Shown here piece by piece: positions 253-58,805 of a DNA stretch of 64,000 nucleotides. Below the pieces are notes generated by a model. That model was given only the letters and a program-made list of their open reading frames with translations, searched no databases and was not told the origin of the DNA. The position numbers and the translations under genes are program-made. How positions within the stretch are numbered: position 1 is the stretch's first letter; every line of letters begins with the position of its first letter. The stretch covers positions 6,725 through 70,724 of IMG/VR virus record IMGVR_UViG_3300028831_000155, one strand, 5' to 3'. The DNA comes from a virus.

Positions 253-507
253 ATGAAGGCTAGGTTTTACGGCGGTCCACTGGACAATCAGGTGAGAACC
301 CTACCGCCAAATACGCAGCGCTTTGAAGTACCGCTAATCGAGAATATGCCGCCCTTCGATTGGGAGCGCGGCGTCTTCGTGGGCACCATCACGGATAGGC
401 CGCCGATACTACATCGAGCGATATATATCCGCCAGACTCGACGGGTGGATCAGCCAGATAATGTCAAGCTACTTCACGTGCCGTTCGTCCTAGAACGCGA
501 AATCTGA
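253..507 (+). CDS. hypothetical protein
   Basis: 84-aa ORF with no recognisable motif. Confidence 0.3.
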   Translation: MKARFYGGPLDNQVRTLPPNTQRFEVPLIENMPPFDWERGVFVGTITDRPPILHRAIYIRQTRRVDQPDNVKLLHVPFVLEREI

Positions 508-530
508 AATGTTGCGCGCGCCGCGAAAAG
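504..530 (+). promoter_or_regulatory. conserved early regulatory motif, copy 1 (CTGAAATGTTGCGCGCGCCGCGAAAAG)
   Basis: The 16-mer TGTTGCGCGCGCCGCG is repeated exactly at 3027-3042. It sits just upstream of the ATG at 535 and contains a TTGCGC hexamer that resembles a -35 box. Confidence 0.45.
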
Positions 531-534
531 ACAA

Positions 535-753
535 ATGACCGATCTGCCCCAAATCTTCGACGGTCGGAATTTGACGCCGCGCGACCTGCGAATCCTCGCT
601 GAGTACGGCCGTCACGGAAACATCCGAGATGCGGCCAAACAATTAGGCATAGCGCCGCAGACCATGAAGGACAAACTGCACCTGATCTATGCCCAACTCG
701 GCGTCCATTCGGTCGGCGCCGCGATCTGGAAAGTGTTTGTAGGAAACGAGTGA
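535..753 (+). CDS. LuxR/GerE-family HTH transcriptional regulator
   Basis: 72 aa; LTPRDLRILAEYGRHGNIRDAAKQLGIAPQTMKDKLHLIYAQLGVHS matches the GerE-type helix-turn-helix pattern. Confidence 0.6.
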   Translation: MTDLPQIFDGRNLTPRDLRILAEYGRHGNIRDAAKQLGIAPQTMKDKLHLIYAQLGVHSVGAAIWKVFVGNE

Positions 754-765
754 CCACCTAGAACA

Positions 766-862
766 GCGGCGAACAACATCCCCTTACAGGGGATTTGTTG
801 TTGTTCGGCGCGCTGTAACTAGGCCCGAACAAGTGTTTGGCCTGTTCGGAAGTGTTGTTCGG
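766..862. repeat. iteron-like repeats (core TGTTCGG/CCGAACA, 5 copies in both orientations)
   Basis: Copies seen: cgaacaaca, tgttgttgttcgg, ccgaacaag, tgttcgg, tgttgttcggg. They lie between the HTH regulator gene and the end of the RepA-like gene. Confidence 0.4.
778..806 (+). terminator. hairpin ATCCCCttacaGGGGAT followed by a T-rich tract
   Basis: Perfect 6-bp inverted repeat immediately after the LuxR-like stop codon, followed by TTTGTTGTTGTT. Confidence 0.4.
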
Positions 863-863
863 G

Positions 864-2237
864 TTAGAGGGAATTGCTTTTCAGACCCCAGCGCATTGTT
901 CCATCCGGCGCCGTGAAGGTGACGAATAGTTTTCCCTCCCCCCGCTTCAAAGTCACTCTCACCGCATCAGTGGTGGCATCCAATTCCTCAGCGATCTCCC
1001 AGATGGCGAGAGCGCCGCGTTTGAGAACCTCGGCGATCTGAATCTTGAGCGGCAAGCGCTGCGCGAGGGCCGGAACAGACTTGACCTCTGTGGGTCGGAT
1101 GCTTATGTGCTCGTCACTGAACACGTACTCAAAGGCCGTGGCTGGATACTGCGGCCCGAGATTGTTCTTCTTGCTGAACAAGCCAACCGTGATGCGGTCA
1201 GCGCCGGGTGACTGATGCTTTTTGACAAACCATGTGCGGCGCGCTCCGTTATGGAAGAACGTGCTGCCGAACGGCTTGTCCTCGTCCTGAGCCTTGGTGT
1301 TATGGGCGATGGTGATGACTGGCACCGCCAATCTGCGTACCGAACGGTAGAAGTTGCTGGCAATTTCTTGCTCGTTGGCGTCACCCCCGGCAGCCTGTGC
1401 CAGAGAGTCGAGCGCAACCAATTCGATCTTCTCGTCTCTGACGACTGCCCGTAACTGATCCACTGCGTCTGTTACGGGTCGATCCATACGTAGATAGCGG
1501 ATCACGGGACGCTCGTCGGTCTGCATGAGCTGGCGCATTCGGTCCTTGTGGACCCAATCCTCATCTTCCCAGTCGAGGTACAGCACCTTGCGCGTACTGA
1601 GCGGCTTGATGCCGATGAACGCCTCACTGCCAGTTCGTAACGCCAGCGCGAACGCGAGTAGCAGGGTCGATTTCCCGGTCCCTCCATCGCCAAAGAAGAT
1701 CGTTACACCGGACGGAGAAATAAAATTGCCGAGCAGTTCGTTCTCGGCAGGTGGATCAGGAGCATCCCATAGGTCCTCAGTAGGCTGACCATTACGGTAT
1801 GCCGTCAGCGCTCTGATAGATGCCCACTCGACCATGCTTTCCCACGCAAACCCGAAGTCTTTGGTGCGGCGGTCGAGCGTGTTCGCAAGTGTGACCTTGG
1901 AATTGGACGAGAGCAGGTTCAGACGGCTCTTGTTCAGCGGTCCCTCAAGCATGGCCGCCGCGCTATCTAGGTAGACCGTCACCTCAGCAAAGGTCTCTCC
2001 ATGGCTGTCAGTACGTAGAAGATCGAAGTCGATCTGCACGTGCTGGTCTTGGAAAAGGGCTGTGTGTATCTCGTGATCCGTGAAGAAGATGCGACCATCC
2101 GCAGTAGTGCTATGCAGAGCCTTGATCGCAGATCGCAGTTCTTCCGTGCGCTCAACAACTGTGCGTTGAGCAGGAGTGAGCATTTGGCCGCCCTTCTCGT
2201 TGTTGACAGCGGCTTTTGGAGGCTTATATGATGGCAC
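864..2237 (-). CDS. RepA-like AAA-ATPase (RecA-fold) primase/helicase-type replication protein
   Basis: 457 aa; Walker A GDGGTGKST; Walker B-like LYLDWEDE; DSLAQAAGG motif; C-terminal winged-helix-like tail. Confidence 0.7.
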   Translation of the reverse strand: MPSYKPPKAAVNNEKGGQMLTPAQRTVVERTEELRSAIKALHSTTADGRIFFTDHEIHTALFQDQHVQIDFDLLRTDSHGETFAEVTVYLDSAAAMLEGPLNKSRLNLLSSNSKVTLANTLDRRTKDFGFAWESMVEWASIRALTAYRNGQPTEDLWDAPDPPAENELLGNFISPSGVTIFFGDGGTGKSTLLLAFALALRTGSEAFIGIKPLSTRKVLYLDWEDEDWVHKDRMRQLMQTDERPVIRYLRMDRPVTDAVDQLRAVVRDEKIELVALDSLAQAAGGDANEQEIASNFYRSVRRLAVPVITIAHNTKAQDEDKPFGSTFFHNGARRTWFVKKHQSPGADRITVGLFSKKNNLGPQYPATAFEYVFSDEHISIRPTEVKSVPALAQRLPLKIQIAEVLKRGALAIWEIAEELDATTDAVRVTLKRGEGKLFVTFTAPDGTMRWGLKSNSL

Positions 2238-2412
2238 CAGCGTTCTCCTTGGAAGGTGTTTCGGCGCTTCTCCTTGGTGAGTGCGGTGCGAGAGCCGAAC
2301 GATTCGCGGGTCGAGCTTCCTAGCCCTCCTCGCGGTCTGTGCCCCGGCGAATCGCCTTCAGGACCCGTCTCGTAAGAGGCGGGTTCTGTCTTAGACAGGG
2401 AATCCTACGCCC

Positions 2413-2448
2413 AACAAAAAGCCGCCGCAAGCCTCAACCTGCGGCGGC
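2413..2448 (-). terminator. rho-independent terminator (9-bp GC stem GCCGCCGCA/TGCGGCGGC followed by TTTTTGTT on the minus strand)
   Basis: Perfect inverted repeat at 2421-2429 and 2440-2448, preceded on the plus strand by an A-run. It lies 18 nt downstream of the small minus-strand gene. Confidence 0.55.
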
Positions 2449-2466
2449 TGTGGATAGCCTGTGGAT

Positions 2467-2639
2467 TACTTCATGTTCGGGGCGCGGGCCTCCTTATCGG
2501 ACAGATCGGTCTGCGGCGCCGCAGGCTTGTTGGTGGTCTGCTCGCTCGACTGCTTGTCCACTCGCTCCTGCGTCGTCTTGTTCTGGGTGTCGGGTGTCTG
2601 CGACACATTCTGGGATGGATTGGGGTCTCGCTGCGACAC
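2467..2639 (-). CDS. small hydrophilic Q/T/K-rich protein (57 aa; below the ORF-track cutoff)
   Basis: GTG start 8 nt after a perfect AGGAGG; translation VSQRDPNPSQNVSQTPDTQNKTTQERVDKQSSEQTTNKPAAPQTDLSDKEARAPNMK; terminator follows. Confidence 0.4.
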
Positions 2640-3020
2640 GGGGTGTACCTCCTAGTATCTGAAGGGCCGCCGCACACCTGCTCGGCAAGTGCCATGCCAG
2701 AAGGGTCTTGACAGTGGTGATATCGTTTCGCTCACGTCCCGGCGACGGTCGGGGCGAGAGAGATAGCCCAACCCCGTTGGCTGAAGACGGGAAGGCACAC
2801 TCGGCAGCAGAAAACGGCGCCGCGAGGGTGACAGAGAGTAGCGGCGTCAGAGATGGAATCCCCGTCGAACCTGCGGGCCGCTCAGGGCCTTGAAAACTCT
2901 GGGTGGGGATGACCGAACGAGTGGTCGTGGTTGAATTGCTACATTCAAAAGGCAGCGCCACGTCGAGGTGAAGTCCTCGCTCTCAGCAAGAACCCAGCCG
3001 AAAGGTTGGGTTTCTTGTTT

Positions 3021-3058
3021 TCTGAAAATGTTGCGCGCGCCGCGGAGAGTGATATCAT
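3021..3058 (+). promoter_or_regulatory. early promoter with conserved motif, copy 2 (TTGCGC, 16 nt spacer, TATCAT); leaderless start for 3065
   Basis: -35 TTGCGC at 3031-3036 and -10 TATCAT at 3053-3058; ATG 7 nt downstream. Shares the 16-mer with 511-526. Confidence 0.5.
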
Positions 3059-3064
3059 CACAGC

Positions 3065-3439
3065 ATGGACAAGTTGCGACTGTTCATCTGGGAGGGCGAC
3101 GGGATCAGCGACGCCTATCACGATGATGGCACGCTAGTAATGCTGGCTGAAAGCCCAGATCAGGCACGCGAGGTATTACGGCGCACGATTGAGGCCGACA
3201 AGCCTCAACAGGAGATTCATAACGCCGCGTGGGAGTCCCAGATGGAAAAGTTCAGGCAGGCGGGTGGATTTAGAACTTCGACTCGCTTTTGGGAGAGCGA
3301 GTACGCCAAAAATCTTCCCGACCAACCTCCCAACCGAGCCGATGGTGGCACACTGAAGGCCATGGAGCGCGAGCCAGACCGCGTGATTGAACTCGACAAG
3401 CCGCGGTGGGTTGCCTTCAACGGCGGAGGATACGACTGA
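3065..3439 (+). CDS. hypothetical protein
   Basis: 124-aa ORF; its stop overlaps the next start (TGAATG). Confidence 0.45.
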   Translation: MDKLRLFIWEGDGISDAYHDDGTLVMLAESPDQAREVLRRTIEADKPQQEIHNAAWESQMEKFRQAGGFRTSTRFWESEYAKNLPDQPPNRADGGTLKAMEREPDRVIELDKPRWVAFNGGGYD

Positions 3440-3850
3440 ATGACTCTCAAGCGCTCCTACATTCGCCGCAAGCCGCGGCGCAACCGTGAACCCGTAGACT
3501 GGCCCGCCCTACAGGAACACGTACGCCTACGCGATGCAGCGCAGAGCGCCATCAAACTCCGCGAGCGGCTCGATCCGCTGACCGCGGCGAGGATGGCTTC
3601 GCAGGGCGACCTGCCCTGCGTGGCGTGGGTCATCGAGGGCGGCCCCATAGTGTGCGGGCCCACCAAGTCATGGCGTCTGGACCACGTGCAGGAGAACTAC
3701 GGACGTGCGGGCCGCAAGGCTGAGGATCAGGAGGATCGCTTAGTCTCGCTATGCGAGGTCCACGATGAACGGGGGATGAAGGGCGGCGCTCAATGGAATA
3801 CCTCGCATCGCGAGGATGAGCGCCGCTATCTGGAATCACTCTACGGTTAG
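3440..3850 (+). CDS. putative HNH-like nuclease
   Basis: Cys pairs plus LDHV...N...LCEVHD spacing resemble an HNH/zinc-finger nuclease core. Confidence 0.35.
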   Translation: MTLKRSYIRRKPRRNREPVDWPALQEHVRLRDAAQSAIKLRERLDPLTAARMASQGDLPCVAWVIEGGPIVCGPTKSWRLDHVQENYGRAGRKAEDQEDRLVSLCEVHDERGMKGGAQWNTSHREDERRYLESLYG

Positions 3851-3859
3851 GAGGAAGTC

Positions 3860-4450
3860 ATGGACCTATCTACCATCAGCATGCAGAAGGAGCAGGCCGA
3901 GGCCGCTTTCCGAGAGTATCGCGGCGCGTTCCTCGCCGAGCGCAATCGCATCGACGGCGAACTGATGCGCGGCTACAAGGCACTCAAGGAAGGCAAGCAG
4001 CTCATCCGCTTGGCCGAAACTATCGCCACTGGTGGCGTGGATGATCTGGGACGCCCGCGCCTCGCTATTGCACGAGCCGACGAGCGTGAAATCGGAATGG
4101 TTCGCTGGCGCTCGGGTGAGGTGAACTATGAGCCTTCCAGCCGACGCATCCGTGCCCGAGATCGAGTGTTTCGGTTCCCAAGCGGTACGCTGCCAGCCGA
4201 TGACAATGTGGAATGGAAGTACTGGTACGCGCTGACACCATTGGTGCCACCGCGTTTCCGAGCACCCAACTCCGCGCTGAGCAACTTCCACGTTCTTTGG
4301 GAGGCCGAGTGGTACGCTCAAGCCAAGACTCGCGTCGCACCACGCGACCCCGCACTACTTCGTCACCTCGGCGGTGATCTATGGGTCGTTCTCGCTACGT
4401 GGGACCTTACTGAACTAGAGCGGGCCGTACTAGAAATGCGCGCCAGTTAG
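3860..4450 (+). CDS. hypothetical protein
   Basis: 196-aa ORF with coding-like composition. Confidence 0.45.
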   Translation: MDLSTISMQKEQAEAAFREYRGAFLAERNRIDGELMRGYKALKEGKQLIRLAETIATGGVDDLGRPRLAIARADEREIGMVRWRSGEVNYEPSSRRIRARDRVFRFPSGTLPADDNVEWKYWYALTPLVPPRFRAPNSALSNFHVLWEAEWYAQAKTRVAPRDPALLRHLGGDLWVVLATWDLTELERAVLEMRAS

Positions 4451-4638
4451 GATGGCTTGCCCTTCTTGGCCTTGGCGGCAGAGGTCGCCGCAGGACGTAC
4501 GGCGGTGTTCTCGTCCTTCTCAACCACGCCAGCGCGGTCGCCATGCTTCGCGTTCCACTCTAGGGTGTTCTCCTGAGTGGGGTCATAGTTGCCGCGGTAC
4601 ATCGGGTCTTCTGTCTGGGTCTGGGTTTTATCGGCCAT
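4447..4638 (-). CDS. small hydrophilic, probably disordered protein, antisense to the early block
   Basis: 63 aa, rich in D/E/K/T/Q; AGGAGA sits 5 nt upstream of the ATG. Confidence 0.4.
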   Translation of the reverse strand: MADKTQTQTEDPMYRGNYDPTQENTLEWNAKHGDRAGVVEKDENTAVRPAATSAAKAKKGKPS

Positions 4639-4653
4639 CGGAGTCTCCTCTGA

Positions 4654-4869
4654 ATGGGTTTACCACATGAAGATGCAGAGGCCATGCCAGTGAGAGACCG
4701 TATCGAGGTCTCGCTGCTGGTGGGATTGCTGACCGCTCTGGGCATGGCCGCGATATGGGCTGGCTGGGAACTGGTTACCCATGGCTTGGTGGTGCTGACG
4801 GTGGTGTTCTTCGGTTTCATCGCCGCGATCCTGACCTTCATCATTGATACGGTGACATCGCGGCCATGA
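4654..4869 (+). CDS. small membrane protein
   Basis: 71 aa with two hydrophobic helices (LLVGLLTALGMAAIWAGW, VVLTVVFFGFIAAILTFII). Confidence 0.5.
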   Translation: MGLPHEDAEAMPVRDRIEVSLLVGLLTALGMAAIWAGWELVTHGLVVLTVVFFGFIAAILTFIIDTVTSRP

Positions 4870-5318
4870 AACCACTGAAGGTAACCGCGGTCGGCGTCAG
4901 CCCAAAGTCAGCGCCAGTCGTGGTTGATCCGGGGCTAGTGAGAGCCGAGGACCTATGCCGCAAACTAGCGGCGTGGGCTGATGTCGCGGAGGTTTCCTCG
5001 CCGCGGTGCGGCACTGGCAGCCTCGGCATCTGGAAGTCTGACCTCCTGAACCGGCTGATCTATGCGGCTGAGATGCCGAGTCAGACGCCTTGCCCAGTTC
5101 ACAAGGGCAAGTGGAGCGGCTGTCACTTCGGATGGCCCGGATCGACTTGGGTCGGCATCGACCCCAAGACTGGCGAGCGGACTGAGAAGCCCGCAGATGT
5201 TGAGCCACGTCTCCAAGAATGGTGGGACGCGGGTTGCCGCTGCGCCACCCATCAAGGCTCGTCCTGCACGACCGGGTGGAACCCCGACGCCGCGTGCGGA
5301 TGCCTCAGCAATGATTAG
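4866..5318 (+). CDS. hypothetical Cys-rich protein
   Basis: 150 aa; ATGA overlap with the upstream gene. Confidence 0.45.
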   Translation: MKPLKVTAVGVSPKSAPVVVDPGLVRAEDLCRKLAAWADVAEVSSPRCGTGSLGIWKSDLLNRLIYAAEMPSQTPCPVHKGKWSGCHFGWPGSTWVGIDPKTGERTEKPADVEPRLQEWWDAGCRCATHQGSSCTTGWNPDAACGCLSND

Positions 5319-5547
5319 CACCTTCCGACGTGACCTGCGGCGCTTCCGAGAGGAATGCGACCACGGCCGCAGTCACACCCAACTCGACCCGCACCAGCAT
5401 CGCATCCTGTGGCGTGACGGCCGCCATCATCACGAAGTCCTGTGCTCATGGTGCGGCCAGTGGGCCGAGATCAACAAGGAATCGGACCTACCCGACTCAT
5501 GGTCGCCGCAAGCCAAAGAGTTCTGGAAGCAGAAGCATCTGCGATGA
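5311..5547 (+). CDS. hypothetical His/Cys-containing protein
   Basis: Internal ATG at 5311 within track ORF 5062-5547; the upstream part of that ORF is an overlap artefact. Confidence 0.35.
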   Translation: MISTFRRDLRRFREECDHGRSHTQLDPHQHRILWRDGRHHHEVLCSWCGQWAEINKESDLPDSWSPQAKEFWKQKHLR

Positions 5548-5705
5548 GCAAACGTGGGCTAGCCGCTGTTCTCGCATTCTGGGGCTGGCTTATTGTCATC
5601 CTTTTGATCGGTTTCACCTTGTCGTGGAACGCCGCCGTAGTGTTCTGTTTCGGAACAATTATTGTTGTGTGTCTGAGCGCCATCGTCTATGGATTCGCCG
5701 CATAA
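5544..5705 (+). CDS. small membrane protein
   Basis: 53 aa, MSKRGLAAVLAFWGWLIVILLIGF...; ATGA overlap with the upstream gene. Confidence 0.4.
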   Translation: MSKRGLAAVLAFWGWLIVILLIGFTLSWNAAVVFCFGTIIVVCLSAIVYGFAA

Positions 5706-5707
5706 CC

Positions 5708-6025
5708 GTGAGCGCCGCAGAAGATGCACTGGCTACCCTGCTCAAGTGGGAGAAACTGGACTACGGCATGGAACGGGAGTTCAGGTTCGCGGCGCCGCGG
5801 CGATGGAGATTCGATTTCGCTTTCCCGCACGCCATGACCGCCATCGAGGTAGAGGGTGGTTCGTGGATCGGCGGCGCCCACACCCGCGGCGCTCACTTCG
5901 AGGCTGACTGTGAGAAATACAACGCCGCGGTCAGTGCCCACTGGAGGGTGCTGCGAGTGACGCCACGCATGATTGACGACGGTCGTGCTGTCGCCGCGCT
6001 CAAGGACTTGTGGGGCATCACATGA
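5708..6025 (+). CDS. DUF559/Vsr-like endonuclease-domain protein
   Basis: RFDFAFP...AIEVEGGSWIG...H...WRVLRV resembles the (R)xDFAxP...iEvDG...H restriction-endonuclease-like core. Start codon is uncertain (GTG at 5708 or ATG near 5768). Confidence 0.4.
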   Translation: MSAAEDALATLLKWEKLDYGMEREFRFAAPRRWRFDFAFPHAMTAIEVEGGSWIGGAHTRGAHFEADCEKYNAAVSAHWRVLRVTPRMIDDGRAVAALKDLWGIT

Positions 6026-6276
6026 GGATCAGCCGGAGGTATTCGTCCGAGGCCGCGGACTTCATCGAGAAGATCGAGCAGCACCTCGACGCGCCGCCGA
6101 ACTCGCTTTCGATCTACCTCGTGGCGCTGCTGATAAACAAGGGCGACGACCTGCCGCCACGCTGCCATGCCCATGAACTGGTGAGCGCCGCCAACTGGAT
6201 GCCGCAATTCGGAATGTTGCGCTGGCACCGGGAAGGAAATGAGACAGTGGTGTCATGGCGCGAACATCTGAACTAG
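6010..6276 (+). CDS. hypothetical protein
   Basis: 88-aa ORF. Confidence 0.4.
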   Translation: MGHHMRISRRYSSEAADFIEKIEQHLDAPPNSLSIYLVALLINKGDDLPPRCHAHELVSAANWMPQFGMLRWHREGNETVVSWREHLN

Positions 6277-6506
6277 AAAGATTCCGCATCCAGCGGCTCG
6301 CTAACTACAACAGCGAAACAGGCCGTGGCCTTGTGCATACCCGAGACTGGACCTACTTCATGGTCAAGGAACAGATGTGGTACGACAATGACTACATGCC
6401 GCACATGTGGGCAGAAAGAGGATACGAACCTGACCCCGATAGCAAGGGGCCATTCATCGTTTACCGCAAGGTCAAGCAGTCCCCATGGTGGAGGCGGCTG
6501 CTCTGA
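6255..6506 (+). CDS. hypothetical protein
   Basis: 83-aa ORF, W/Y-rich. Confidence 0.4.
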   Translation: MARTSELERFRIQRLANYNSETGRGLVHTRDWTYFMVKEQMWYDNDYMPHMWAERGYEPDPDSKGPFIVYRKVKQSPWWRRLL

Positions 6507-6766
6507 TGGTCTTCATGGATGTAGCACCGCCTAGCAACAAGCGTCGCGCCGAGATCAAGCGCGAGTACGAGAACAAGGAGTTCAACCGCGTGCGAGGGGC
6601 ACTGCGGCAGATGGTGGATGAGACCCGGATCGCCGCAGACCTGACCGAATTCCTAGTGTTGCATGGCGCGCCGCAGAACTTGATCGTATTCGTCTCTCAG
6701 AATCTCAAGCGCCTAGCGTGGGACCTCAACGCTGTGGGAGCAGGCACCGAGCCGCGTGACGAGTGA
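6485..6766 (+). CDS. hypothetical protein
   Basis: 93-aa ORF. Confidence 0.4.
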   Translation: MVEAAALMVFMDVAPPSNKRRAEIKREYENKEFNRVRGALRQMVDETRIAADLTEFLVLHGAPQNLIVFVSQNLKRLAWDLNAVGAGTEPRDE

Positions 6767-7128
6767 GAGTCTTAGTCTGCGGCGACCGTCACTGGAAGGA
6801 CTACGGCTATATCTTCGACCGTCTGGATGATATGAGTCTCTACTACAACATCACCGAGATCATAGAGGGATGTGCTCGCGGCGCTGATCGTTTCGCTGAA
6901 CATTGGGCAGCCGGTAAGGAAATGCCGATCCAGCACTTCCCAGCGGACTGGAATAGGTATGGTAAGGCTGCTGGAATCATCCGCAATCAGCAGATGCTCG
7001 ATGAAGGCAAGCCCGACATGGTGGTGGCCTTTCACACTGCCCTCATGCAGAGCAAGGGCACCAAGGATATGGTGCAACGTGCCCGCGCCGCTGGCATCGA
7101 GACCTTTGTATTCCCGCACCACGAGTGA
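6763..7128 (+). CDS. DUF2493 / SLOG-family Rossmann-like protein
   Basis: VLVCGDRHW...GCARGADRFAEHWA...IIRNQQMLDEGKPDMVVAFH matches the phage DUF2493/SLOG pattern. Confidence 0.5.
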   Translation: MRVLVCGDRHWKDYGYIFDRLDDMSLYYNITEIIEGCARGADRFAEHWAAGKEMPIQHFPADWNRYGKAAGIIRNQQMLDEGKPDMVVAFHTALMQSKGTKDMVQRARAAGIETFVFPHHE

Positions 7129-7553
7129 GGTTCATCCTCGCCGCGAACCGTAGCCTTCCGATTGCGGCGGTCGCCAACCACACGCTGATGAAGTTAGCGG
7201 CGCTGCCCATGGATGCATGGGTGCTGCTCCGCAAACCAGTCTCAGGCAATCCCGCCGCATACGAGACCTTCGTGGCCCAGTTGTGCGGCGATCTGGGCAT
7301 CAGCGTGGAGTGGTTCGCGCCTGACCCAGAAGGTCATGGCCGCTCCTCTGTCTATGAACGCGACGTGAGAATGGCCCGCGCCGCAGACGGTGCCATCTGT
7401 TACTTCGATCCAGACACCCCCATGGACGGCGGCACAGGTCACGTCGCAGAGCGCTGCATCGAGGAGGACACTCCGGTCGAATGTTTCGTGTGGGAGCCAA
7501 CTGTCAATCGCCTCGATTTGATCGGCTCGATTGAAAAGAACAGCGGCCTTTGA
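7125..7553 (+). CDS. hypothetical protein, possible divergent SLOG-like paralog
   Basis: 142 aa; ATGA overlap with 6763-7128; the GGTGHV motif loosely parallels DUF2493. Confidence 0.35.
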   Translation: MRFILAANRSLPIAAVANHTLMKLAALPMDAWVLLRKPVSGNPAAYETFVAQLCGDLGISVEWFAPDPEGHGRSSVYERDVRMARAADGAICYFDPDTPMDGGTGHVAERCIEEDTPVECFVWEPTVNRLDLIGSIEKNSGL

Positions 7554-7574
7554 CATAAGTGCTACCCTACGCGC

Positions 7575-8102
7575 GTGCTCGCCGCCGCAACCCTACAGTG
7601 GACAAATGCCACTGTTGCGCGCCTCAGTTACGAATGGAAGTCCGAAGTACCCCTGTCCATGCACCGCATGGGTGAGCGCGGCTTAGGCTCGGATGGGAAT
7701 CCGCAGTGGACTCAGGAATTCGAGTTCTACCTGACGCGCGGCATTGGCAGAGCCGAAACCGATACGCGACCCGACGACTGGGAGGAACGAAACATTCACG
7801 AGCGCCGCGGCCCGTACCAACAGCCTCCCGCCCGAGTCAGGACCACCCGAGCCTTCCGCAAACTGCGCCGCCATTCCAATGCCGAGTTCATCGTGGCCTA
7901 TCGGCTATGCGTCTTGGACCCGCCGCTATACGACCACAAGAACCTCGAAGCCTCGTCTCGAAGTTTCTCGGGCGCGCTAAACAGGACCGTCCACTGGCTC
8001 AACCAGCGGGCGGTGCAACGTGAAACAGGAGAGACCTACACCTTCGAGCAGGTGGCCCTGCTCGCCTACGCCGCCGCCGAGAAACTCAATTCTTGGGCGT
8101 GA
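7575..8102 (+). CDS. hypothetical protein
   Basis: 175-aa ORF. Confidence 0.45.
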   Translation: MLAAATLQWTNATVARLSYEWKSEVPLSMHRMGERGLGSDGNPQWTQEFEFYLTRGIGRAETDTRPDDWEERNIHERRGPYQQPPARVRTTRAFRKLRRHSNAEFIVAYRLCVLDPPLYDHKNLEASSRSFSGALNRTVHWLNQRAVQRETGETYTFEQVALLAYAAAEKLNSWA

Positions 8103-9647: not shown

Positions 9648-10379
9648 CTAGACAATCACCGCATCCAATCTCAGAGATGCGGAACGCAGCACCTTGTGCT
9701 TCTCACGGGCCGTGATCCGTGCGTCGAGGTCAATCAGCACGTCCATCAGGTCCTCGTTCTTGGCGTAGCGATCAAAGCCCTGAGCCAGTACGTGGTCCAC
9801 CACGTGGTCCACACCGGAGTGGAAAGTGGTGCGGTCGTGCTTGATAACCGCGAGGTCGAGGTAGGCATCGAGAGTAAGGCTGCGAGACTGGTTGCGTTTG
9901 ATGACTGCGGCGGCGGTGAGTGAGGTCGAGACAGTTCTGACCAGCGCCGCATCGAGGGTAAATGACCTCGAAATGGTGTTAGTGATGGTCGCGTCGAGGG
10001 TGAGGCTCGAAGACTGAGATCGCCGCAGAACCGCGTTGGCTGTGAACGAAGCGTTCTGAGTTCTGAGGAGAACGGCATCGAGGGTGAGGGTCGCGGTTCC
10101 GGGCAGCGCCGAAGTCTGGAAAGCGTCGGTTTGGAAGGCATCGCTTTGGAATGCAGGAGCGCCCGGAACGCCCTGAATGACCGCATCCAGCGTGAATGAG
10201 TATTGGATAAAGGCATTGAGGGTGAGGGACGCGCTCTGGGAGCGCCGCAGGACACCATCTAGCGTGAGACTAGATGTCTGGCTGCGGAGCAGGACCGCAT
10301 CGAGAGTCAGGGTCGGACTAGCGGCACCAGTCTCGAACGAGTCGCCTTGGAATGAATCTGACTGGAAGGCTCCGGCCAT
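9648..10379 (-). CDS. fibrous protein with 14-aa SASLTLDAVLxRTQ tandem repeats (tail fibre or decoration paralog)
   Basis: 243 aa; about 9 repeat units shared with 29329-30903 and 30873-34079; strong SD (AAAGGAGGGTGAGGC). Confidence 0.5.
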   Translation of the reverse strand: MAGAFQSDSFQGDSFETGAASPTLTLDAVLLRSQTSSLTLDGVLRRSQSASLTLNAFIQYSFTLDAVIQGVPGAPAFQSDAFQTDAFQTSALPGTATLTLDAVLLRTQNASFTANAVLRRSQSSSLTLDATITNTISRSFTLDAALVRTVSTSLTAAAVIKRNQSRSLTLDAYLDLAVIKHDRTTFHSGVDHVVDHVLAQGFDRYAKNEDLMDVLIDLDARITAREKHKVLRSASLRLDAVIV

Positions 10380-37177: not shown

Positions 37178-37256
37178 TGGAATGACCTTTCTTGCTTGCG
37201 GCACCTTCTGGCACCATGTGATATCACTATAGTCATCTGATATCACGCTGGCAAGC

Positions 37257-47466: not shown

Positions 47467-47832
47467 AGGCTCCTTACATGGAAAGACTCGCGGCTGATGT
47501 GGGCGATTCAGTCACGAGTCCTGCCATTCACGGCAACCGATACTGCAGATGGTGCTGCGGGCCGCCGCTATTCAAGGGGAGGGCTTGCGGGTCCTCGCAA
47601 GGGATAATTGCTGCCCAACTGCCCGCTCGCTCGCCGCAAGCCCTCTAGGGAGACTCCGCCTTGCGGCGATTGCCCGAGCCATCCCTGTTTCTAATGCGGC
47701 GCCACGAGTCAGATTAGGAGTTTTGCGCCTTCGCTTTTAGCAAAGAACTCCGTGGGCCGAACCCGCTCGCGCCGCGATATCACCTTAGCGACTGGACTCA
47801 GTAGAGTCAAGCCTTTTCCTACGATAGCCTTC
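47467..47832. other. 366-nt structured noncoding spacer inside the late operon
   Basis: Nested inverted repeats GGGCTTGCGG...CCGCAAGCCC, CTTGCGggtcctCGCAAG and GGAGTT(23 nt)AACTCC; no ORF. Confidence 0.3.
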
Positions 47833-48321
47833 CTAGGTCTCATCGTACGAGACACTCGCTATTTCCTGTGTCCAGTTGCCGGGTCCGCAGGTTGCGTCAA
47901 CTTGCAACTGGAAGACGAAGTACTTGGTGGTGGCGTTGGTCGCCGAGTACGACGCCGAGTCGAAGGTCAGTTTGTTGCCCGCGGTGAAGTTGACGAAGGT
48001 CGTGTTGGCGACCGTGCTGGTCGCAGTGGTTGGAGTGGCCCCAGTCACATAGGCGCCAGTCACCATCAGCGTGGTGCTGGTTTGTACGGCGCCGTCACCC
48101 CAAATCTTGAAGTTGGTCACCGCGTTGGCGGGAGCGGTGTCCACCTTCATCTTGAGCCACTTCTCGTAGGAGTTGGTGCCGACCGTGATCGGGTTGGCTT
48201 GGCGGTTGCCAAGCGTGTTGGTGGCGTTGTCGGCCGACTCCAGATCAATACCTGTGACTACGGCGGATTCGGTTCCGGCTGAAGCGCCGGTATAGACCCT
48301 GAACGAAAGACTAGCGGCCAT
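47833..48321 (-). CDS. hypothetical structural protein
   Basis: 162 aa, Thr/Ala-rich, directly downstream of the portal gene. Confidence 0.4.
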   Translation of the reverse strand: MAASLSFRVYTGASAGTESAVVTGIDLESADNATNTLGNRQANPITVGTNSYEKWLKMKVDTAPANAVTNFKIWGDGAVQTSTTLMVTGAYVTGATPTTATSTVANTTFVNFTAGNKLTFDSASYSATNATTKYFVFQLQVDATCGPGNWTQEIASVSYDET

Positions 48322-48338
48322 GAGATATCACATTTCTC

Positions 48339-49736
48339 CTACGCTGGACCCTTGGATGCGGCGTTGGCTGGAGCCTGTGGGCGCGGCTGGCTCACCCCAT
48401 TTGCGGGAGGGTTGGATGGTGCCGCGGCGGCGGCCTTCTTGGATAGACCCGCCATATCGGCAGGTGTTGGAATGTCATCGGCCTTGCCCGTCAAGCGGAC
48501 AATGCCGAGCGGGGTGTTGGCGATCAATTGGTTGAACGGGTTTTCTGGATCGTTCACATCACCGATTGGCTCGCGGCCCGCGTCAATCAGAGCGGCATTG
48601 ATGGTCAGGTACGGCATACCCGCCAGAGCGATCTTGTTGATGGTGGCCTGCGCGGTGGACTCGCGGATGGTCAGGCGCGGGAAGCGGAAGGCGAGATTGT
48701 TATCGGGGCCGCCGAAACTGTGGTGCCAGACGTACTGCTGGGTTAGTTCGTCTTGGATCAGATCGGCAAGGGGCCGCAGACCACGGTCCTCGGACAGATC
48801 GACCTGCGTATCGGAAGTAGAACGGTTGATGTCGAACAGCAGGCCGAGGTCTTGGATCGACAGGCCGAACACGATGGCGAACTGGCGCACCAGCCATTGC
48901 TGGTACTCCAAGAACTGCATGTCCTTGTTGGTCGGACGGAACGCGGTGTAGCCGGGATTCTTGCCGCCCGCGGTGATGGCAAGCGCCCCAGACGACTGCA
49001 GGTCTTGGTAGAACTCTGACTTGAACCGCTCACGGTCATCGGGCGTCACGCCCTCGCCCAGATGTAGCAATCCATCAGGAATCGGGAAGTCGATCAGGCG
49101 CCGGTTGTAATCACTGGCCGCCATCTCCGAGACGACCACATCACGCAGCACTTCCAGCGGCGAGACACCCAGCACGGTGTAGGTGCTGGGGTTCTGCATC
49201 ATGTAACTCATCTGGGAGTTCTTCCATGACGTGCCGTGATATTGGCCGTCTGGATACCAGAAGTAGCGCGGCTCGTTGCGATCCGAGCCATCCCACGTGG
49301 TCGAGACACGCACCTTGGCCGCATCTACTGGATGAATCTGGACCAGATCGCGGAAGCCGTCCTCTACGCCCTCCGATACGCCCGCATCCAGCGTCATCAG
49401 GTCTTCGATGATGGGGGTGATGAAGGCTCGGAAGGAGCGCTGCGTGTCATTGGGATGCGCGAACAGATCGGTGATCTTGGCGGCCAGACGCTTGGAATAG
49501 GGCCGGTTCACGTCGAATGGCCCGATCTCGAAGTCTGCTGAGGCGATCTGGTTCTTGCGAATGTCGATGGCGCCGCGAATCCACGGATTACTTCTGGTCC
49601 ACGAGCGATAGCCATTGACATTGGTCTTGAAGGCACGGTTCTGGGATACGGCGATAGACGCCAGCGTGGACGGGCTGCGATCAACCGCCTTGGGGGCGAT
49701 GGCGCGCTGCAGCCATTGGGTAACAATTCCTGCCAA
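48339..49736 (-). CDS. portal protein
   Basis: 465 aa immediately after the large terminase gene; HK97-type portal-like composition and size. Confidence 0.65.
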   Translation of the reverse strand: MAGIVTQWLQRAIAPKAVDRSPSTLASIAVSQNRAFKTNVNGYRSWTRSNPWIRGAIDIRKNQIASADFEIGPFDVNRPYSKRLAAKITDLFAHPNDTQRSFRAFITPIIEDLMTLDAGVSEGVEDGFRDLVQIHPVDAAKVRVSTTWDGSDRNEPRYFWYPDGQYHGTSWKNSQMSYMMQNPSTYTVLGVSPLEVLRDVVVSEMAASDYNRRLIDFPIPDGLLHLGEGVTPDDRERFKSEFYQDLQSSGALAITAGGKNPGYTAFRPTNKDMQFLEYQQWLVRQFAIVFGLSIQDLGLLFDINRSTSDTQVDLSEDRGLRPLADLIQDELTQQYVWHHSFGGPDNNLAFRFPRLTIRESTAQATINKIALAGMPYLTINAALIDAGREPIGDVNDPENPFNQLIANTPLGIVRLTGKADDIPTPADMAGLSKKAAAAAPSNPPANGVSQPRPQAPANAASKGPA

Positions 49737-49740
49737 CGCC

Positions 49741-51294
49741 TTACCTCATTCCAAAGTGATTGGACAGCAGTTGCCGCATTTCACGCTTGATAAGGTCCGA
49801 TTCTTGGCTCTTGGCGGCTGCCGCGATCTTCTCAGGTTCTACGGGCTTGGGGCCGTGTGCGATTTTCACATCGCTGGGACGTATCACGCTAAAGGAAAAA
49901 TCACCGCCACCGAGGTCCATGGCGAAGCCCAACGAGTCCACGAAGTCGTCATGGCCTCGGTTGAAACTGAGCAGTTCGCGCTCGAAGTCACTGCCACGCA
50001 GTGAAACGTGGTGATAGACCTTGTGAGCCTCGTATCGCGCGGCCACGCCTCGGCCGCGGGTGGTCTTGTCGGTATCGGTCTTCTTGGGGCTGACCGGGAT
50101 GCGCGGATAGTCCCGCATCAGTTCTTGGACCAGAAGCGTCTGCGCCTGCACCGCCTCGACCTTGACCAGCGAGATTTGGGGGAAGGCCTGATAGCCCGCG
50201 TTCACGAAAGCGGCGTGGCCGCCCTCCATCTTGTCGCGGTAAGCACTCATCACGAAGAAGTCGCCGGTCCGATTCTCAGCCACCACTACCCGCGCGGTGT
50301 AGTCGGCGCGCTCGCGGGTGCTCATGGCGAGGTCTACGCCCATGCGGTAGGTGTACTCGCCCTCCGGCAGGACATCGAAGTACTGGAACCACTCGGCGCG
50401 GAAGATATTGCCCTCCAGCAGGCCGGTGATGTCGTTGAGGTAGGCGCACGCGAAAAGCGGGCCGCCCATGTTCTCCTTCATTTCCAGCAGCTTGGATACG
50501 GGCCACACCTCAGGCCAGTACGAGAACAGGTTGCCTTCTCGCTCGATCAGGGCTGAGGTGATGCGGTGCCGCCAGCCGCGGCCCTTGGGCTTGGGCTGGA
50601 TCAGCATTTGGTACAGGTCGTCCTCGGCCCACGCGGTGCCGATGACCAGAATCACGCCCTGATCCGAAAGACACGGGTACAGCGTCTTCCACATCCACTG
50701 GTTGACGCGCTCACGCTGCTCGGGAGTGGCCGAGTTCTCGTCGTCAATCACGTCATCGAGGATCACCACATCGAAGCGCTTGGATACGACCTGCCCGCCC
50801 ACGCCTCCGGCGAACATAGTCACGTCCTTGGAGCCTTCCCAGCGGCTTCCGGCCCGCAGCCACGTGGCATCGGTCCACTTGGTATCGGACACCAGATGGC
50901 CGAATATCTCCCTGAAGCGCTCGTTGCGCTCTAGGGTCAGCCGAATACCACGGCTCATGTCGAAGGCGCGCTCGGCGGTCTTGCTGAATAGGCCGATGCG
51001 GATATTGGGCCGTTTGGCAACGAGGTAACTGCCGAGGATGGTGGTCACCCACGTGGTCTTGGCACCACCGCGCGGCTCCATATCAACCGAATCGGTGTGA
51101 GTATCTATACCCTCAAGGCAGAACTCCACCATCTCGCGATGGTGTTTGGCGGGTTCGTAGCCGAATACGTACTCGCCGTACTTGAAAACGTCATTCGGCG
51201 CCTGAAACCTCAGAATCAGGTCCAGCGCTTCTCTGGCTTCCTCCGGGCTCAACGAGTCGGAGTCGGGAGGCTCGTTCGATCCGTTCGATGGCAT
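49741..51294 (-). CDS. terminase large subunit
   Basis: GGAKTTW Walker A-like and VVILDDVIDDE Walker B motifs; C-terminal nuclease-like region; 517 aa. Confidence 0.75.
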   Translation of the reverse strand: MPSNGSNEPPDSDSLSPEEAREALDLILRFQAPNDVFKYGEYVFGYEPAKHHREMVEFCLEGIDTHTDSVDMEPRGGAKTTWVTTILGSYLVAKRPNIRIGLFSKTAERAFDMSRGIRLTLERNERFREIFGHLVSDTKWTDATWLRAGSRWEGSKDVTMFAGGVGGQVVSKRFDVVILDDVIDDENSATPEQRERVNQWMWKTLYPCLSDQGVILVIGTAWAEDDLYQMLIQPKPKGRGWRHRITSALIEREGNLFSYWPEVWPVSKLLEMKENMGGPLFACAYLNDITGLLEGNIFRAEWFQYFDVLPEGEYTYRMGVDLAMSTRERADYTARVVVAENRTGDFFVMSAYRDKMEGGHAAFVNAGYQAFPQISLVKVEAVQAQTLLVQELMRDYPRIPVSPKKTDTDKTTRGRGVAARYEAHKVYHHVSLRGSDFERELLSFNRGHDDFVDSLGFAMDLGGGDFSFSVIRPSDVKIAHGPKPVEPEKIAAAAKSQESDLIKREMRQLLSNHFGMR

Positions 51295-54102: not shown

Positions 54103-54115
54103 GGGGTCGGCTTAG

Positions 54116-55148: not shown

Positions 55149-55225
55149 TTCGGAGGTAGGAAGCCCACGATACCCACTGGCTCGCCGCCGTTCGTGATCG
55201 CTGCCATTGCTCGCACACTAGTCAT
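54992..55225 (-). CDS. hypothetical protein
   Basis: 77-aa ORF. Confidence 0.3.
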   Translation of the reverse strand: MTSVRAMAAITNGGEPVGIVGFLPPKWAVVVDKSGHLRRADINGLHLADTWDWKPALTSATLAAKAERRERRLRRIA

Positions 55226-55253
55226 CGCTTTCTCCTTCGTTCCTCATGCTCGC

Positions 55254-56492: not shown

Positions 56493-56613
56493 GCAAAGCC
56501 GCGGATATGGGTCCTGCCGTCCGCGGCGGTGGCAGAGCCTTTGATGCCTCGCGCCGCATTCCGGTCAAGGTTCTGACCTAGCCGCCCTGAGCCGTGAGAT
56601 TTCTTGTCGATCA

Positions 56614-57504
56614 TCACTTGGCCGGGATAACCACGCCAGTGCTGCTGCCCCAACACGAGAATCCGGCAGGCAGAGCGTAGCCCTTACTGATTGCATCGTT
56701 GAGCAGATCAAAGCATTTCGACACCAGCACGTTGGGGTCCTTGGATACCGATGCGGCCAGTTCGGCATTGGCGTTGGCCTGTGCCTGAGCCGTCTTGACG
56801 GCCTGCTGTGCAATGCGGGTCTGGGCGATCTGAGCCTGTAGTGCATTCAGACGGGCCTGCGTGCTGGTGTCAAAGTGCAGAACCGGGATGAACACGCTCA
56901 AGACTTCGACCTGAACGCCAATCTGGGCCTGCATCTGGGCAAGGACCGAGGCGGCCAACGAGCTGAGTGTCGGCGCTGCCGAGTTACCGCTGCTATCGAC
57001 CAGCAGCGGATCGTAGTCAGCCAGCACTGCATTCAAGTCGGTCGCCAGTTCCCGAGTGACGAGCGAGTTACGCACGTTGTCGAAATCGCGGTAGTCCTGA
57101 AACAACTCGGGTGCGGCCGATTCTCTGATCCGCCAGCGAATGGTCACGTCAGTGCAGGCCACGATCTGGTGCGCAATGCGAGTAGGTACGCACGAGTTCT
57201 GGTTAGAGGCGTCGCGCAAGTCGGTCTGCACCGCCGCATCCATCTCGGTCACATCTTCCCAAGGCGCCTTCCAATGCAGGCCGTTATCCAACACGCCGAC
57301 TGGACGCGCGAAGGCGGTCACGATGCCGACTTCCTTGGTACCGACGATGACGATGGTCGAGAACAGGATGGCTATCAGCGCCAACAGCAGGCTGCCGATG
57401 CCAGCGGCGATGAGTCCGCCGCGCTCCTGAACATCAACAACGGCTGCGAAGAACAGCGCGATGGACACCAATATCAGTACAAGGCCAAGAATGAAAGGAA
57501 TCAT
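56614..57504 (-). CDS. SPFH/band-7 (prohibitin-like) membrane protein
   Basis: N-terminal TM helices; TKEVGIVTAFARPVGVLDNGLHWKAPW matches the SPFH core. Confidence 0.65.
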   Translation of the reverse strand: MIPFILGLVLILVSIALFFAAVVDVQERGGLIAAGIGSLLLALIAILFSTIVIVGTKEVGIVTAFARPVGVLDNGLHWKAPWEDVTEMDAAVQTDLRDASNQNSCVPTRIAHQIVACTDVTIRWRIRESAAPELFQDYRDFDNVRNSLVTRELATDLNAVLADYDPLLVDSSGNSAAPTLSSLAASVLAQMQAQIGVQVEVLSVFIPVLHFDTSTQARLNALQAQIAQTRIAQQAVKTAQAQANANAELAASVSKDPNVLVSKCFDLLNDAISKGYALPAGFSCWGSSTGVVIPAK

Positions 57505-57821
57505 GTGCTCACCTTATGGGTGCGCTGGTATTGGTGGGCCTGAGAAGAATTGATGCCGTGCGCCTTCACGATCTGGTTCCACTCGGCATCATCCCATAGC
57601 GGCTTTTCGACCAACTCCAAAGGGGGCTTCTGGGCGCTGACTGAAATATCGCCGGGTGAATACGTGGCGGTCGAAGTAGACAGCATGCCCAGCGCATCCT
57701 TGAGCACGAGGTTGGTGAACTGGCTGGCCGACTCACCGCGCTTAGAGGAATGGGAAACGAGGTTGTCCCAGACCTGATCCTCGATGTTCAGGGTATGCGG
57801 CCGCGACAGAGATCGGCTCAA
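57501..57821 (-). CDS. putative RHH-like DNA-binding protein
   Basis: LNIEDQVWDNLVSHSSKRGESASQFTNLVLKDAL; ATGA overlap with the SPFH gene. Confidence 0.35.
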   Translation of the reverse strand: MSRSLSRPHTLNIEDQVWDNLVSHSSKRGESASQFTNLVLKDALGMLSTSTATYSPGDISVSAQKPPLELVEKPLWDDAEWNQIVKAHGINSSQAHQYQRTHKVST

Positions 57822-58063
57822 TTCAGTCTCCCCATATCGGTGACCTCAGCCACACGGCGATGCAGCCATGTCAGCGAGTCCTCCGGCTTCGGAGCCGTCT
57901 CCTGCAAGATGGGGTCGGAGGAGACAACTGGCCTCGGGTAGGCAACACCTGTCTGATAGGTGCTGTTATCGCTCCACGTGCTGAAGTCGGTGTACAGGAT
58001 GGTGTTGGAAGTGGTCGCGGACGTGTTCAGGTTGAAGACCGGCCACGGCTCGTAGACGGGCAT
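57818..58063 (-). CDS. hypothetical protein
   Basis: 81 aa; translationally coupled. Confidence 0.35.
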   Translation of the reverse strand: MPVYEPWPVFNLNTSATTSNTILYTDFSTWSDNSTYQTGVAYPRPVVSSDPILQETAPKPEDSLTWLHRRVAEVTDMGRLN

Positions 58064-58599
58064 CAGTCATCCACCAGCGCGGTCTTCTTACCTGTCGGTC
58101 GCTTGCTGCCATTGGCGCCACCCAGCGCAATGTGCTCGGTCACGTTGGGAAGACGCTCCAGCACCTTGCCGATGGTCTTGTGCAGGTACTCGACTTCCTT
58201 CTCGAATCGGGCGGTGGTGAACTTCATCTGCTCCTCGAACCTGTCCCGGTCGGCCTGCAGGTTCTCCTCGCGCACCTCAAGAATAGCCTTGTCGCGCTCC
58301 AACTTGGTCTCGGTCTCGACCTGCTTCCTGAGTAGACCGACCTCGTGCCGAACCTCGCGCTCCTTGCGGGCCTGCTCCTCCTCTTTGGTTGATTTCTCGA
58401 TCTTCAGCGTCGAGATTTCCTCCCGCAGCAGATTGATCTCGGCGACATATTTCTTGGCCTTGGCCAGCCCCTCCTTATCGCCGGACAATTCAGCGATCTG
58501 CTTCTTGAGTCCACGGATTTCTTCGAGCAATTGGTCTTGCCCAGAATAGTCGCGGACCTTGCGGAGAAATTGCTGCTCAGAGCCGACCCAGAAACCCAC
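58063..58599 (-). CDS. coiled-coil protein
   Basis: 178 aa, E/K/L heptad-rich; first gene of the leftward operon. Confidence 0.5.
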   Translation of the reverse strand: MGFWVGSEQQFLRKVRDYSGQDQLLEEIRGLKKQIAELSGDKEGLAKAKKYVAEINLLREEISTLKIEKSTKEEEQARKEREVRHEVGLLRKQVETETKLERDKAILEVREENLQADRDRFEEQMKFTTARFEKEVEYLHKTIGKVLERLPNVTEHIALGGANGSKRPTGKKTALVDD

Positions 58600-58777
58600 C
58601 GGCGTTCTCCTTGCTGAGTTAGTGCGGTAAGGCGTCCATTGTAGCGTTCAGGCAGTAGGATGTCAATGTTGCGTGGGGTACGGAATACGACGCTCGACCA
58701 CCATTTCCCTTGCTCGGGAACTTTCGAGGTGGGGCCTAGCATAGGGCTGGTGGTGAGGTCAAGCTGATTGTTTGGGC

Positions 58778-58805
58778 TTGCGGTAGCGCCGCAAGGTGGT
58801 ATGCT
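58778..58805 (+). promoter_or_regulatory. early promoter copy 3: TTGCGG, 16 nt spacer, TATGCT, with an embedded palindrome TTGCGGtagcgCCGCAA
   Basis: Near-consensus sigma70-type spacing; shares TTGCGnnnGCGCCGC with the motifs at 511-530 and 3031-3047; ATG at 58812 lies 6 nt past the -10 (leaderless). Confidence 0.5.

Follow-up and report, generated by a model that had tools for sequence, protein, structure and literature searches.

A repeated, asymmetric element over a predicted leaderless promoter of an uncultivated soil phage: a candidate regulator-binding site

Background

Do two identical short sequences upstream of rightward genes in an uncultivated phage mark one kind of regulatory site, and does a third, similar-looking sequence belong with them? 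The question is raised by a 64,000-nucleotide (nt) stretch of DNA (IMG/VR virus record IMGVR_UViG_3300028831_000155, positions 6,725 to 70,724), referred to here as the window, from a tailed phage known from soil metagenomes. A preliminary description of this DNA had reported two copies of the 16-mer TGTTGCGCGCGCCGCG (sites 1 and 2), had joined to them a third promoter (site 3) with the related sequence TTGCGGTAGCGCCGCAA, and had proposed a phage-specific family of early promoters and operators, possibly bound by LuxR-type or ribbon-helix-helix (RHH) regulators encoded nearby. As set out below, the sequence CTGAAA(A)TGTTGCGCGCGCCGCG has close to an even chance of being a conserved, asymmetric site that is recognized at the DNA level by a regulatory protein, and site 3 would be a separate promoter.

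Results and discussion

The 16-mer is present twice exactly, at 510-525 and 3029-3044, one to two nt away from the coordinates first given (511-526 and 3027-3042). The full exact repeat is the 19-mer AAATGTTGCGCGCGCCGCG, found on the + strand at 507-525 and 3026-3044 as two direct repeats that are 2,519 bp apart. Similarity continues into the flanks across a 1-nt insertion or deletion (left CTGAAA[A]TG, right G[A/G]A[A/G]AG), and the extended pattern CTGAAA[A]TG...GCG[A/G]A[A/G]AG that had been proposed is indeed present at both sites. Apart from tail-fibre coding repeats, AAATGTTGCGCGCGCCGCG is the longest exact repeat of the window; among dinucleotide-preserving shuffles, 4 of 200 had a longest exact direct repeat of at least 19 nt. 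Both copies lie in non-coding gaps of the + strand gene arrays, just upstream of rightward gene starts (ATG 535 and ATG 3065), as described before. Site 1 occupies a 27-nt gap between co-directional genes, where it overlaps the stop codon (TGA 505-507) of a gene for an 84-amino-acid (aa) protein and ends 9 nt before the ATG of a small helix-turn-helix (HTH) gene. The 13 soil contigs from ENA, JGI and Logan that represent the same phage (at least 99.9% identity) show no variation in the element.

Chance recurrence of a biologically meaningless, G+C-rich word is barely credible as an explanation. The word does turn up elsewhere: metagenome contigs hold 29 matches to the 19-mer, 28 of them with unrelated flanks and mostly inside genes of unrelated bacteria, a genome collection holds 15, again with unrelated flanks (chance matches only, which indicate no host), and viral contigs hold 47 matches to the 16-mer, all in unrelated flanks. 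Apart from a single relative of the phage, no protein similarity to the window was found at the 19-mer matches, and about 20 metagenome matches would be expected from composition, by a rough estimate for an assumed collection of ~10^12 bases. Against chance, a repeat this long is rare in 64 kb, both copies are intergenic, share their orientation and resemble each other beyond the repeat, and the only database match that is a phage relative has the element at the syntenic position. The exact repeat is genuine and did not arise by chance, and it is probably functional.

The relative is a 1,245-nt metagenome contig (L046), the sole relative of the phage among the 29 matches. It encodes the C-terminal part of a helicase that is 31% identical to the window helicase and lies on the opposite strand, as in the window. 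At the syntenic place (L046:393-415) it carries TCTGAAATGTTGCGCGCGCCGCG, identical to site 1 at 23 of 23 positions, and here too the element overlaps the TGA stop of an upstream + strand gene; L046:397-417 is also identical to the site 2 copy at 21 of 21 positions, including the GGA after the element. Because this identity stands amid flanks at 34-38% (Table 1), the element is, as far as one alignment can tell, constrained at the nucleic-acid level. Since spacer bases and all third codon positions are identical as well, neither a bare -35 hexamer nor a peptide explains the constraint. Scans of viral contigs with a 22-base pattern, and with a pattern for a second conserved island at 198-250, returned nothing.

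The peptide in question would come from a nine-codon mini-ORF (open reading frame) that the element encodes at site 1. Its involvement in a translational relay (TGA-a-ATG ... ATGA), in which the mini-ORF couples translation of the HTH gene to that of the upstream gene, is very improbable. The arrangement is exact at 505-511 and 535-538, in that a single nt separates the upstream stop from the mini-ORF, the stop of which shares bases with ATG 535 (ATGA); the HTH gene has no ribosome-binding site, L046 retains a similar mini-ORF (MLRAPRKRKV and a stop), and the first variable codon is synonymous between the copies (CGA/CGG). However, every third codon position is identical, which points to constraint on the DNA, no gene follows the mini-ORF in L046, and no ribosome-binding site precedes it. 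At site 2 the corresponding ATG opens a frame of 32 codons that enters the 124-aa gene out of phase, and this ATG is located ahead of the predicted transcription start. Given the identity at third positions and the out-of-phase frame at site 2, the mini-ORF is more likely a by-product of the element.

Recognition at the DNA level is indicated by RNA folding, in which the element forms no structure beyond that of shuffles (z +1.1 and +1.35), together with a search of Rfam that gave no match, and a reading as an RNA element was rejected on the same grounds. A palindromic operator was also discarded, the 19-mer being self-complementary at 8 of 16 positions only, with GCGCGCGC as its sole symmetric part. 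Judged by eye, CTGAAA...TTGC does not fit a sigma-54 or extracytoplasmic function (ECF) promoter, in which spacing and key bases would differ. The 5' part of the element, AATGTTGCG, has four exact occurrences in the window, all on the + strand: at sites 1 and 2, at 58665-58673, where it abuts the -35 of a leftward promoter in the main control region, and at 6213-6221 in coding DNA. With one mismatch allowed it is not enriched (11 observed, 13 expected), so that as a wider motif it is a weak lead only.

Site 2 lies over a predicted promoter, P3065 (Table 1). Relative to the predicted start at 3065 this copy spans about -43 to -21 and the 19-mer itself -39 to -21. The leaderless geometry proposed earlier is confirmed here: TGaTATCAT is followed after 6 nt by ATG, the A of which is the seventh base past the -10. 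The GGAG nearest to this ATG (3044-3047) is 17 nt away, too far for a ribosome-binding site, and a homolog with 61% identity, in the more distant locus L047, has an N-terminus consistent with this start codon. In the window, the pattern TGnTAnnnT-N6-[AG]TG opens an ORF of at least 40 codons three times (3065, 7575 and 58812), a count that 2 of 300 shuffles reached; with TTG at -35 in addition it is found at two sites, and at least one such site was found in 1 of 300 shuffles. Upstream, the RNA of 2980-3026 folds with -22.1 kcal/mol (z -5.3), and the strong terminator at 2990-3013 forms a composite junction with P3065. The 124-aa protein has 66 homologs in metagenomes; in L047, L114 and L117 its homolog is internal to an operon, and no comparable promoter is therefore found there.

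The earlier proposal of an operator is reasonable for the 19-mer of sites 1 and 2, which is conserved, non-coding and placed over a -35 region, but not for a family of three promoters. The operator reading is supported because -39 to -21 of a statistically supported promoter is a standard position for operators and activator sites. Under this reading, P3065 would be an otherwise ordinary host promoter of the sigma-70/sigma-A type with an extended -10, starting a leaderless operon (3065-8102) after the terminator, and the element at 3022-3044 would cover the -35 hexamer, the bases just upstream and the first 8 spacer bases, with the 19-mer centred at about -30. Bound at site 2, a protein would act as a repressor by blocking RNA polymerase or as an activator by substituting for a weak -35 contact. 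At site 1 this protein would influence transcription that runs into the HTH gene, as a roadblock or in autoregulation. Site 3 would stand apart, as an ordinary leaderless promoter that has an inverted repeat of its own. The repeat, its place outside coding DNA, the promoter geometry and the conservation in L046 are observed, whereas binding of a protein to the element, the identity of that protein and the sign of regulation are inferred.

A TTGnnn hexamer followed after 16-18 nt by TAnnnT is present at sites 2 and 3 and absent from site 1, which had been described as a promoter of the same architecture. At 16, 17 and 18 nt after the TTGCGC of site 1 stand AATGAC, ATGACC and TGACCG, and ATG 535 occupies the -10 position; the sequence upstream (465-510) folds with a z of -0.8 only. 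Site 3 has the promoter geometry reported for it (TTGCGG, 16-nt spacer, TGgTATGCT, 6 nt, ATG 58812), and sites 2 and 3 look, from their sequence, like real rightward promoters with leaderless geometry. The related sequence TTGCGGTAGCGCCGCAA, however, is not the perfect palindrome it was taken for; the inverted repeat that overlaps the -35 of this promoter (58777-58795) reads CTTGCGG-tagcg-CCGCAAG, two arms of 7 nt around a centre of 5 nt that lacks symmetry. The common consensus TTGCGnnnGCGCCGC is out of register at sites 1 and 2, and a motif search of the window with up to 2 mismatches finds it at 58778 but not at 512 or 3031. A match of site 3 to the 19-mer needs a 2-nt insertion or deletion (TTGCG-C-GCGCCGC against TTGCG-GTA-GCGCCGC). 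What is shared is thus a generic, -35-like TTGCG and, differently spaced, the heptamer GCGCCGC, which carries little weight because it is the commonest heptamer of the window (111 copies). Site 3 resembles site 2 by promoter architecture and not by a shared specific element, and the three-member family does not stand. Since every predicted promoter of the window fits the ordinary sigma-70/sigma-A pattern, a phage-specific class of promoters, as had been suggested, is not needed.

Neither of the regulators named earlier could be tied to the element. A Pfam screen of ~40 proteins of both arms, mostly small early ones, contained no RHH regulator and gave no candidate binder of the element. The 72-aa product of the gene next to site 1 cannot clearly be assigned to the LuxR type; it is an HTH protein of uncertain subfamily, scoring below the Pfam cut-offs for GerE (PF00196; 16.9 bits, cut-off 23.5), HTH_1 (23.7, cut-off 26.6) and HTH_30, matching PHROG 3282 'sigma factor' at 6e-7, and giving weak LysR- and NarL-type HTH matches in the PDB (best E-values 0.27-0.73). 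Nothing links this protein to the element.

Several further points, besides the lack of a candidate binder, count against a regulator-binding site. Only two copies of the 19-mer were found in 65.6 kb (the window and the 1.66 kb upstream of it, from a 1,657-nt left extension present in 2 of the 13 same-phage contigs), and the next-best matches have at least 5 mismatches in 19 and lie in coding DNA. The element is non-palindromic, unlike the sites of most dimeric HTH regulators. The identity of two copies within one genome may come from gene conversion and not from selection, and comparative support comes from the single contig L046. Neither the element nor an analogous repeat was found in L001, L015, L017, L047, L048, L051 or L114-L119, more distant relatives reached through the helicase, the 181-aa protein and the 124-aa protein, the first six of which are syntenic yet have no such repeat around the helicase module. 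Finally, element and HTH gene do not co-occur: L048 and L051 have a homolog of the 72-aa protein at the same position without the element, and L046 has the element without an adjacent HTH gene.

That absence from the more distant relatives, and the lack of a -10 at site 1 in both phages (AATGAC in the window and AAGTCT in L046 at 16-nt spacing), would also suit a relic duplication, in which site 2 is a working promoter, site 1 is an incomplete duplicate of the upstream half of site 2 with no function, and the presence of site 1 in L046 reflects a recent, very short mosaic exchange. Such a history is distinctly unlikely, considering that a neutral 23-nt stretch would hardly stay 100% identical amid flanks of 34-38%, and that copies within one genome would not remain exact over 19 nt.

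An unlikely but more serious alternative is that the element is a recombination linker made of a promoter fragment, similar to the promoter-early stem-loop (PeSL) sequences of T4-type phages, the conserved upstream half of an early promoter acting as a homology patch for swaps of gene cassettes. Site 1 would then be a scar or substrate of exchanges instead of an operator, and the hybrid junctions of the copies would read GCGAAATCTGAAATGTTGCGCGCGCCGCGGAGAGTGATATC after a deletion between them and TTGTTTTCTGAAAATGTTGCGCGCGCCGCGAAAAGACAAATG in a circle or duplication. Comparison with L046 gives this some substance. A conserved intergenic hairpin lies upstream of the 84-aa gene (198-250, + strand; L046 65-115; -28 kcal/mol, z -3.15), non-coding in the window and inside an extended reading frame in L046, and this island and site 1 bracket a gene that is replaced in L046 by a non-homologous one (no alignment was obtained between the 84-aa and 92-aa proteins). 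To the right of the element the two phages differ as well, L046 having no HTH gene and a helicase only 31% identical. The copies are direct repeats, and site 2 combines a terminator hairpin, an A/T-rich stretch and a sigma-70 promoter in the layout of PeSL (PMC2839356, PMC4122927). On the other side, there are two copies and no dense series, site 1 lacks both stem-loop and -10, and 19-23 nt is short for homologous recombination. The layout between the copies, an HTH gene and a helicase gene on the opposite strand, is ancestral (L048, L015 and L017), and the segment is therefore no recent cassette insertion. No deletion or circle junction was seen in the searchable collections, which hardly cover this phage; scans of them for the 19-mer did not return contigs of its own. 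On account of the ancestral layout, insertion of a mobile element with target duplication was likewise rejected.

The role of a PeSL-like linker may hold in addition to a regulatory one. Two bolder versions are, taken together, quite improbable: either the element and the 198-250 hairpin form a PeSL-like junction system that drives the swapping of cassettes in soil phages of a lineage unrelated to T4, or the element is an activator box at -30 read by the adjacent protein with similarity to sigma region 4, an independently evolved replacement of the -35 in the style of MotA.

Table 1. Features around the three sites, copies of the palindrome GTGATATCAC, and identity between the window and contig L046 (positions are those of the window)
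Feature	Position	Strand	Details
Site 1 element copy	503-525	+	TCTGAAATGTTGCGCGCGCCGCG; contains the exact 19-mer 507-525
Mini-ORF	509-538	+	MLRAPRKDK and a stop, nine codons; encoded by the element at site 1
HTH gene, 72-aa protein	535-753	+	Directly downstream of site 1; no ribosome-binding site
Intrinsic terminator hairpin and T-run	2990-3013	+	Immediately upstream of site 2
Site 2 element copy	3022-3044	+	CTGAAAATGTTGCGCGCGCCGCG; exact 19-mer 3026-3044
Predicted sigma-70-type promoter P3065	3031-3058	+	-35 TTGCGC 3031-3036, 16-nt spacer, TG 3050-3051, -10 TATCAT 3053-3058
GTGATATCAT	3049-3058	+	9/10 match to GTGATATCAC; overlaps -10 of P3065
First gene of rightward operon 3065-8102, 124 aa	3065-3439	+	Served by predicted P3065
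Site 3, predicted promoter P58812	58777-58805	+	-35 TTGCGG 58778-58783, 16-nt spacer, TG 58797-58798, -10 TATGCT 58800-58805, ATG 58812
Divergent leftward promoter	58638-58666	-	TTGACA-17-TACAAT, 11/12 matches; serves long leftward arm
GTGATATCAC copies listed	3049-3058, 37218-37227, 37237-37246, 47774-47783, 48322-48331, 41977-41986		
Identity with L046: end of 181-aa gene	130-197		38%
Identity with L046: intergenic hairpin island	198-250		88%
Identity with L046: 84-aa gene against non-homologous 92-aa gene	253-500		34%
Identity with L046: element	503-525		100% (23/23)
Identity with L046: downstream of element	526-560		36%

Other features of the window

A second, symmetric motif is associated with promoters of the window. 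The 10-bp palindrome GTGATATCAC occurs 8 times with at most 1 mismatch (1.6 expected; none of 100 shuffles reached 8) and is absent from the relatives examined. The -10 of a leftward promoter near 37255-37227 (TTGCCA-17-TATAGT) has a copy on either side, the -10 of another near 47823-47785 (TTGACT-17-TAAGGT) directly adjoins one, and a further copy is placed between the ribosome-binding site of the gene 47833-48321 and its ATG. At P3065, GTGATATCAT is a possible second operator, symmetric in this case. A classical family of dimer operators is resembled more closely by the GTGATATCAC set than by the 19-mer.

The small rightward genes form two arrays (1-8102 and 58812-64000), and the leftward arm runs from 58599 down to 8086, with terminase (49741-51294), portal (48339-49736), glycosyltransferase-like and tail-like genes. 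Because site 3 stands back-to-back with a near-consensus leftward promoter at 58666-58638, the region 58600-58811 looks, from this arrangement, like the main divergent control region of the phage. Further predicted promoters are TTGACA-18-TATGAT at 2203-2232 and the two leftward ones already mentioned, near ~37255 and ~47823. A third leaderless-type start was seen at 7555-7577 (TGcTACCCT, 6 nt, GTG 7575, opening a 175-aa ORF), with no -35-like hexamer at 16-18 nt.

The near-consensus + strand promoter at 2203-2232 lies across the beginning of the helicase gene and is directed away from that gene, into ~800 nt without a convincing + strand gene. The stretch 2238-3013 lies antisense to a 57-aa gene, has terminator-like hairpins at its end (2369-2383 and 2990-3013) and is possibly a non-coding RNA; it had no match in Rfam. 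L048 has a promoter of this type at the corresponding position, and downstream of it tRNA-like sequences and a TROVE (Ro60-like) gene. A long hairpin (754-863; L048 5320-5440; L046 455-550), probably a bidirectional terminator, separates the convergent HTH and helicase genes and is flanked by short repeats, TGTTCGG/CCGAACA in the window, TGTTGG in L048 and GTTACG/CGTAAC in L046, and L015 and L017 have the palindrome CCAACTAGTTGG twice at this place; these repeats may be iterons of a replication origin or phage-specific binding sites. At position 869 the window has one extra G in a run of G compared with other assemblies of the same phage, which alters the C-terminus of the helicase (457 aa in the window, 474-492 aa called elsewhere); the 457-aa form fits the length of the L048 helicase (460 aa).

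Within the leftward structural arm, 36842-37255 (- strand) holds a gene with its own promoter and, from ATG 37177, a signal-peptide-like N-terminus, MKLLIALSLAIALSAGG; it is a moron-like unit downstream of a gene with a phosphoesterase domain (37257-39089). Extensive periodic coding repeats of 42 and 60 nt at 29400-34000 and 9980-10320, in a 1,068-aa and neighbouring leftward genes, probably encode tail-fibre-like repeat proteins. ARAGORN called a tRNA-Thr(AGT) of 88 nt at 15890-15977 (+), antisense within a 978-aa leftward ORF and probably a false positive.

Comparison with known systems

Promoters of the sigma-70/sigma-A type with an extended -10 that give leaderless mRNAs are common in Actinobacteria and Deinococcus-Thermus. 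Their features (TTGnnn, 16-nt spacer, TGnTAnnnT, the A of ATG as the seventh base past the -10) recur at sites 2 and 3, which likewise have no ribosome-binding site at working distance and show no unusual trait for promoters of this type. Site 1 differs in having no -10, and the polymerase and sigma factor are presumed.

In T4, middle promoters combine a MotA box centred at -30 with a sigma-70 -10. P3065 is similar in having a box near -30, a good extended -10 and a weak -35, and a small protein similar to sigma region 4 is encoded beside one copy of the element. However, the likeness is one of position only. The MotA box and the element are unrelated in sequence, site 1 is without a -10, and among the window proteins screened no homolog of MotA or AsiA was detected. 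The 'start-associated sequences' of Cluster K phages are copies of a conserved 13-mer that precede many start codons at a short, fixed distance. This type was rejected, as the end of the element lies 9 nt from the ATG at site 1 and 20 nt at site 2, no gene follows it in L046, and there are two copies only.

The operators and stoperators of Cluster A mycobacteriophages of the L5 type are a precedent for one asymmetric site that lies over a -35 and in short intergenic gaps, oriented along transcription (PMC9283540, PMC6550527), and they make such a distribution plausible here. The layout in the window is the same, with site 2 over a -35, site 1 in a 27-nt gap and both on the + strand, although n is 2. 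L5 has more than twenty 13-mer sites and a gp71-type repressor (PMC9283540, PMC6550527), in contrast to two copies of a 19-23-mer here. No homolog of the two-domain repressor was recognized, the Pfam screen of the ~40 arm proteins giving weak HTH matches only, with no search dedicated to the stoperator domain and with part of the genome outside the window; nor was there evidence of lysogeny or immunity functions among the window proteins screened. With two copies against more than twenty and no recognizable repressor, the element is not a member of an L5-type system.

PeSL cassettes of T4-type phages mediate cassette exchange (PMC2839356, PMC4122927). The composite of hairpin, A/T-rich stretch and sigma-70 promoter at site 2 is the same, as is the flanking of a small gene, swapped in the relative, by short conserved intergenic motifs. 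The difference is that there are two copies here, one of them with stem-loop and full promoter, in a phage unrelated to T4, and that no recombination products were observed.

Conclusions

A Megablast search of 50,697 phage records found no relative of the phage at the DNA level, and no deposited phage has a portal more than ~25% identical to that of the window; any cis-regulatory map of this phage is therefore new, whatever its content. The map obtained here has two well-supported predicted leaderless promoters of the host type, which hint that the host uses leaderless mRNAs, a 19-23-nt element under clear constraint at the nucleic-acid level and, separately, the palindrome GTGATATCAC on three predicted promoters. 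The element is a fresh instance, in an uncultivated phage, of a familiar kind of phage control element. Should it mark the boundaries of cassettes, the PeSL idea would extend beyond the T4-type phages; otherwise it would be an ordinary site of the operator type.

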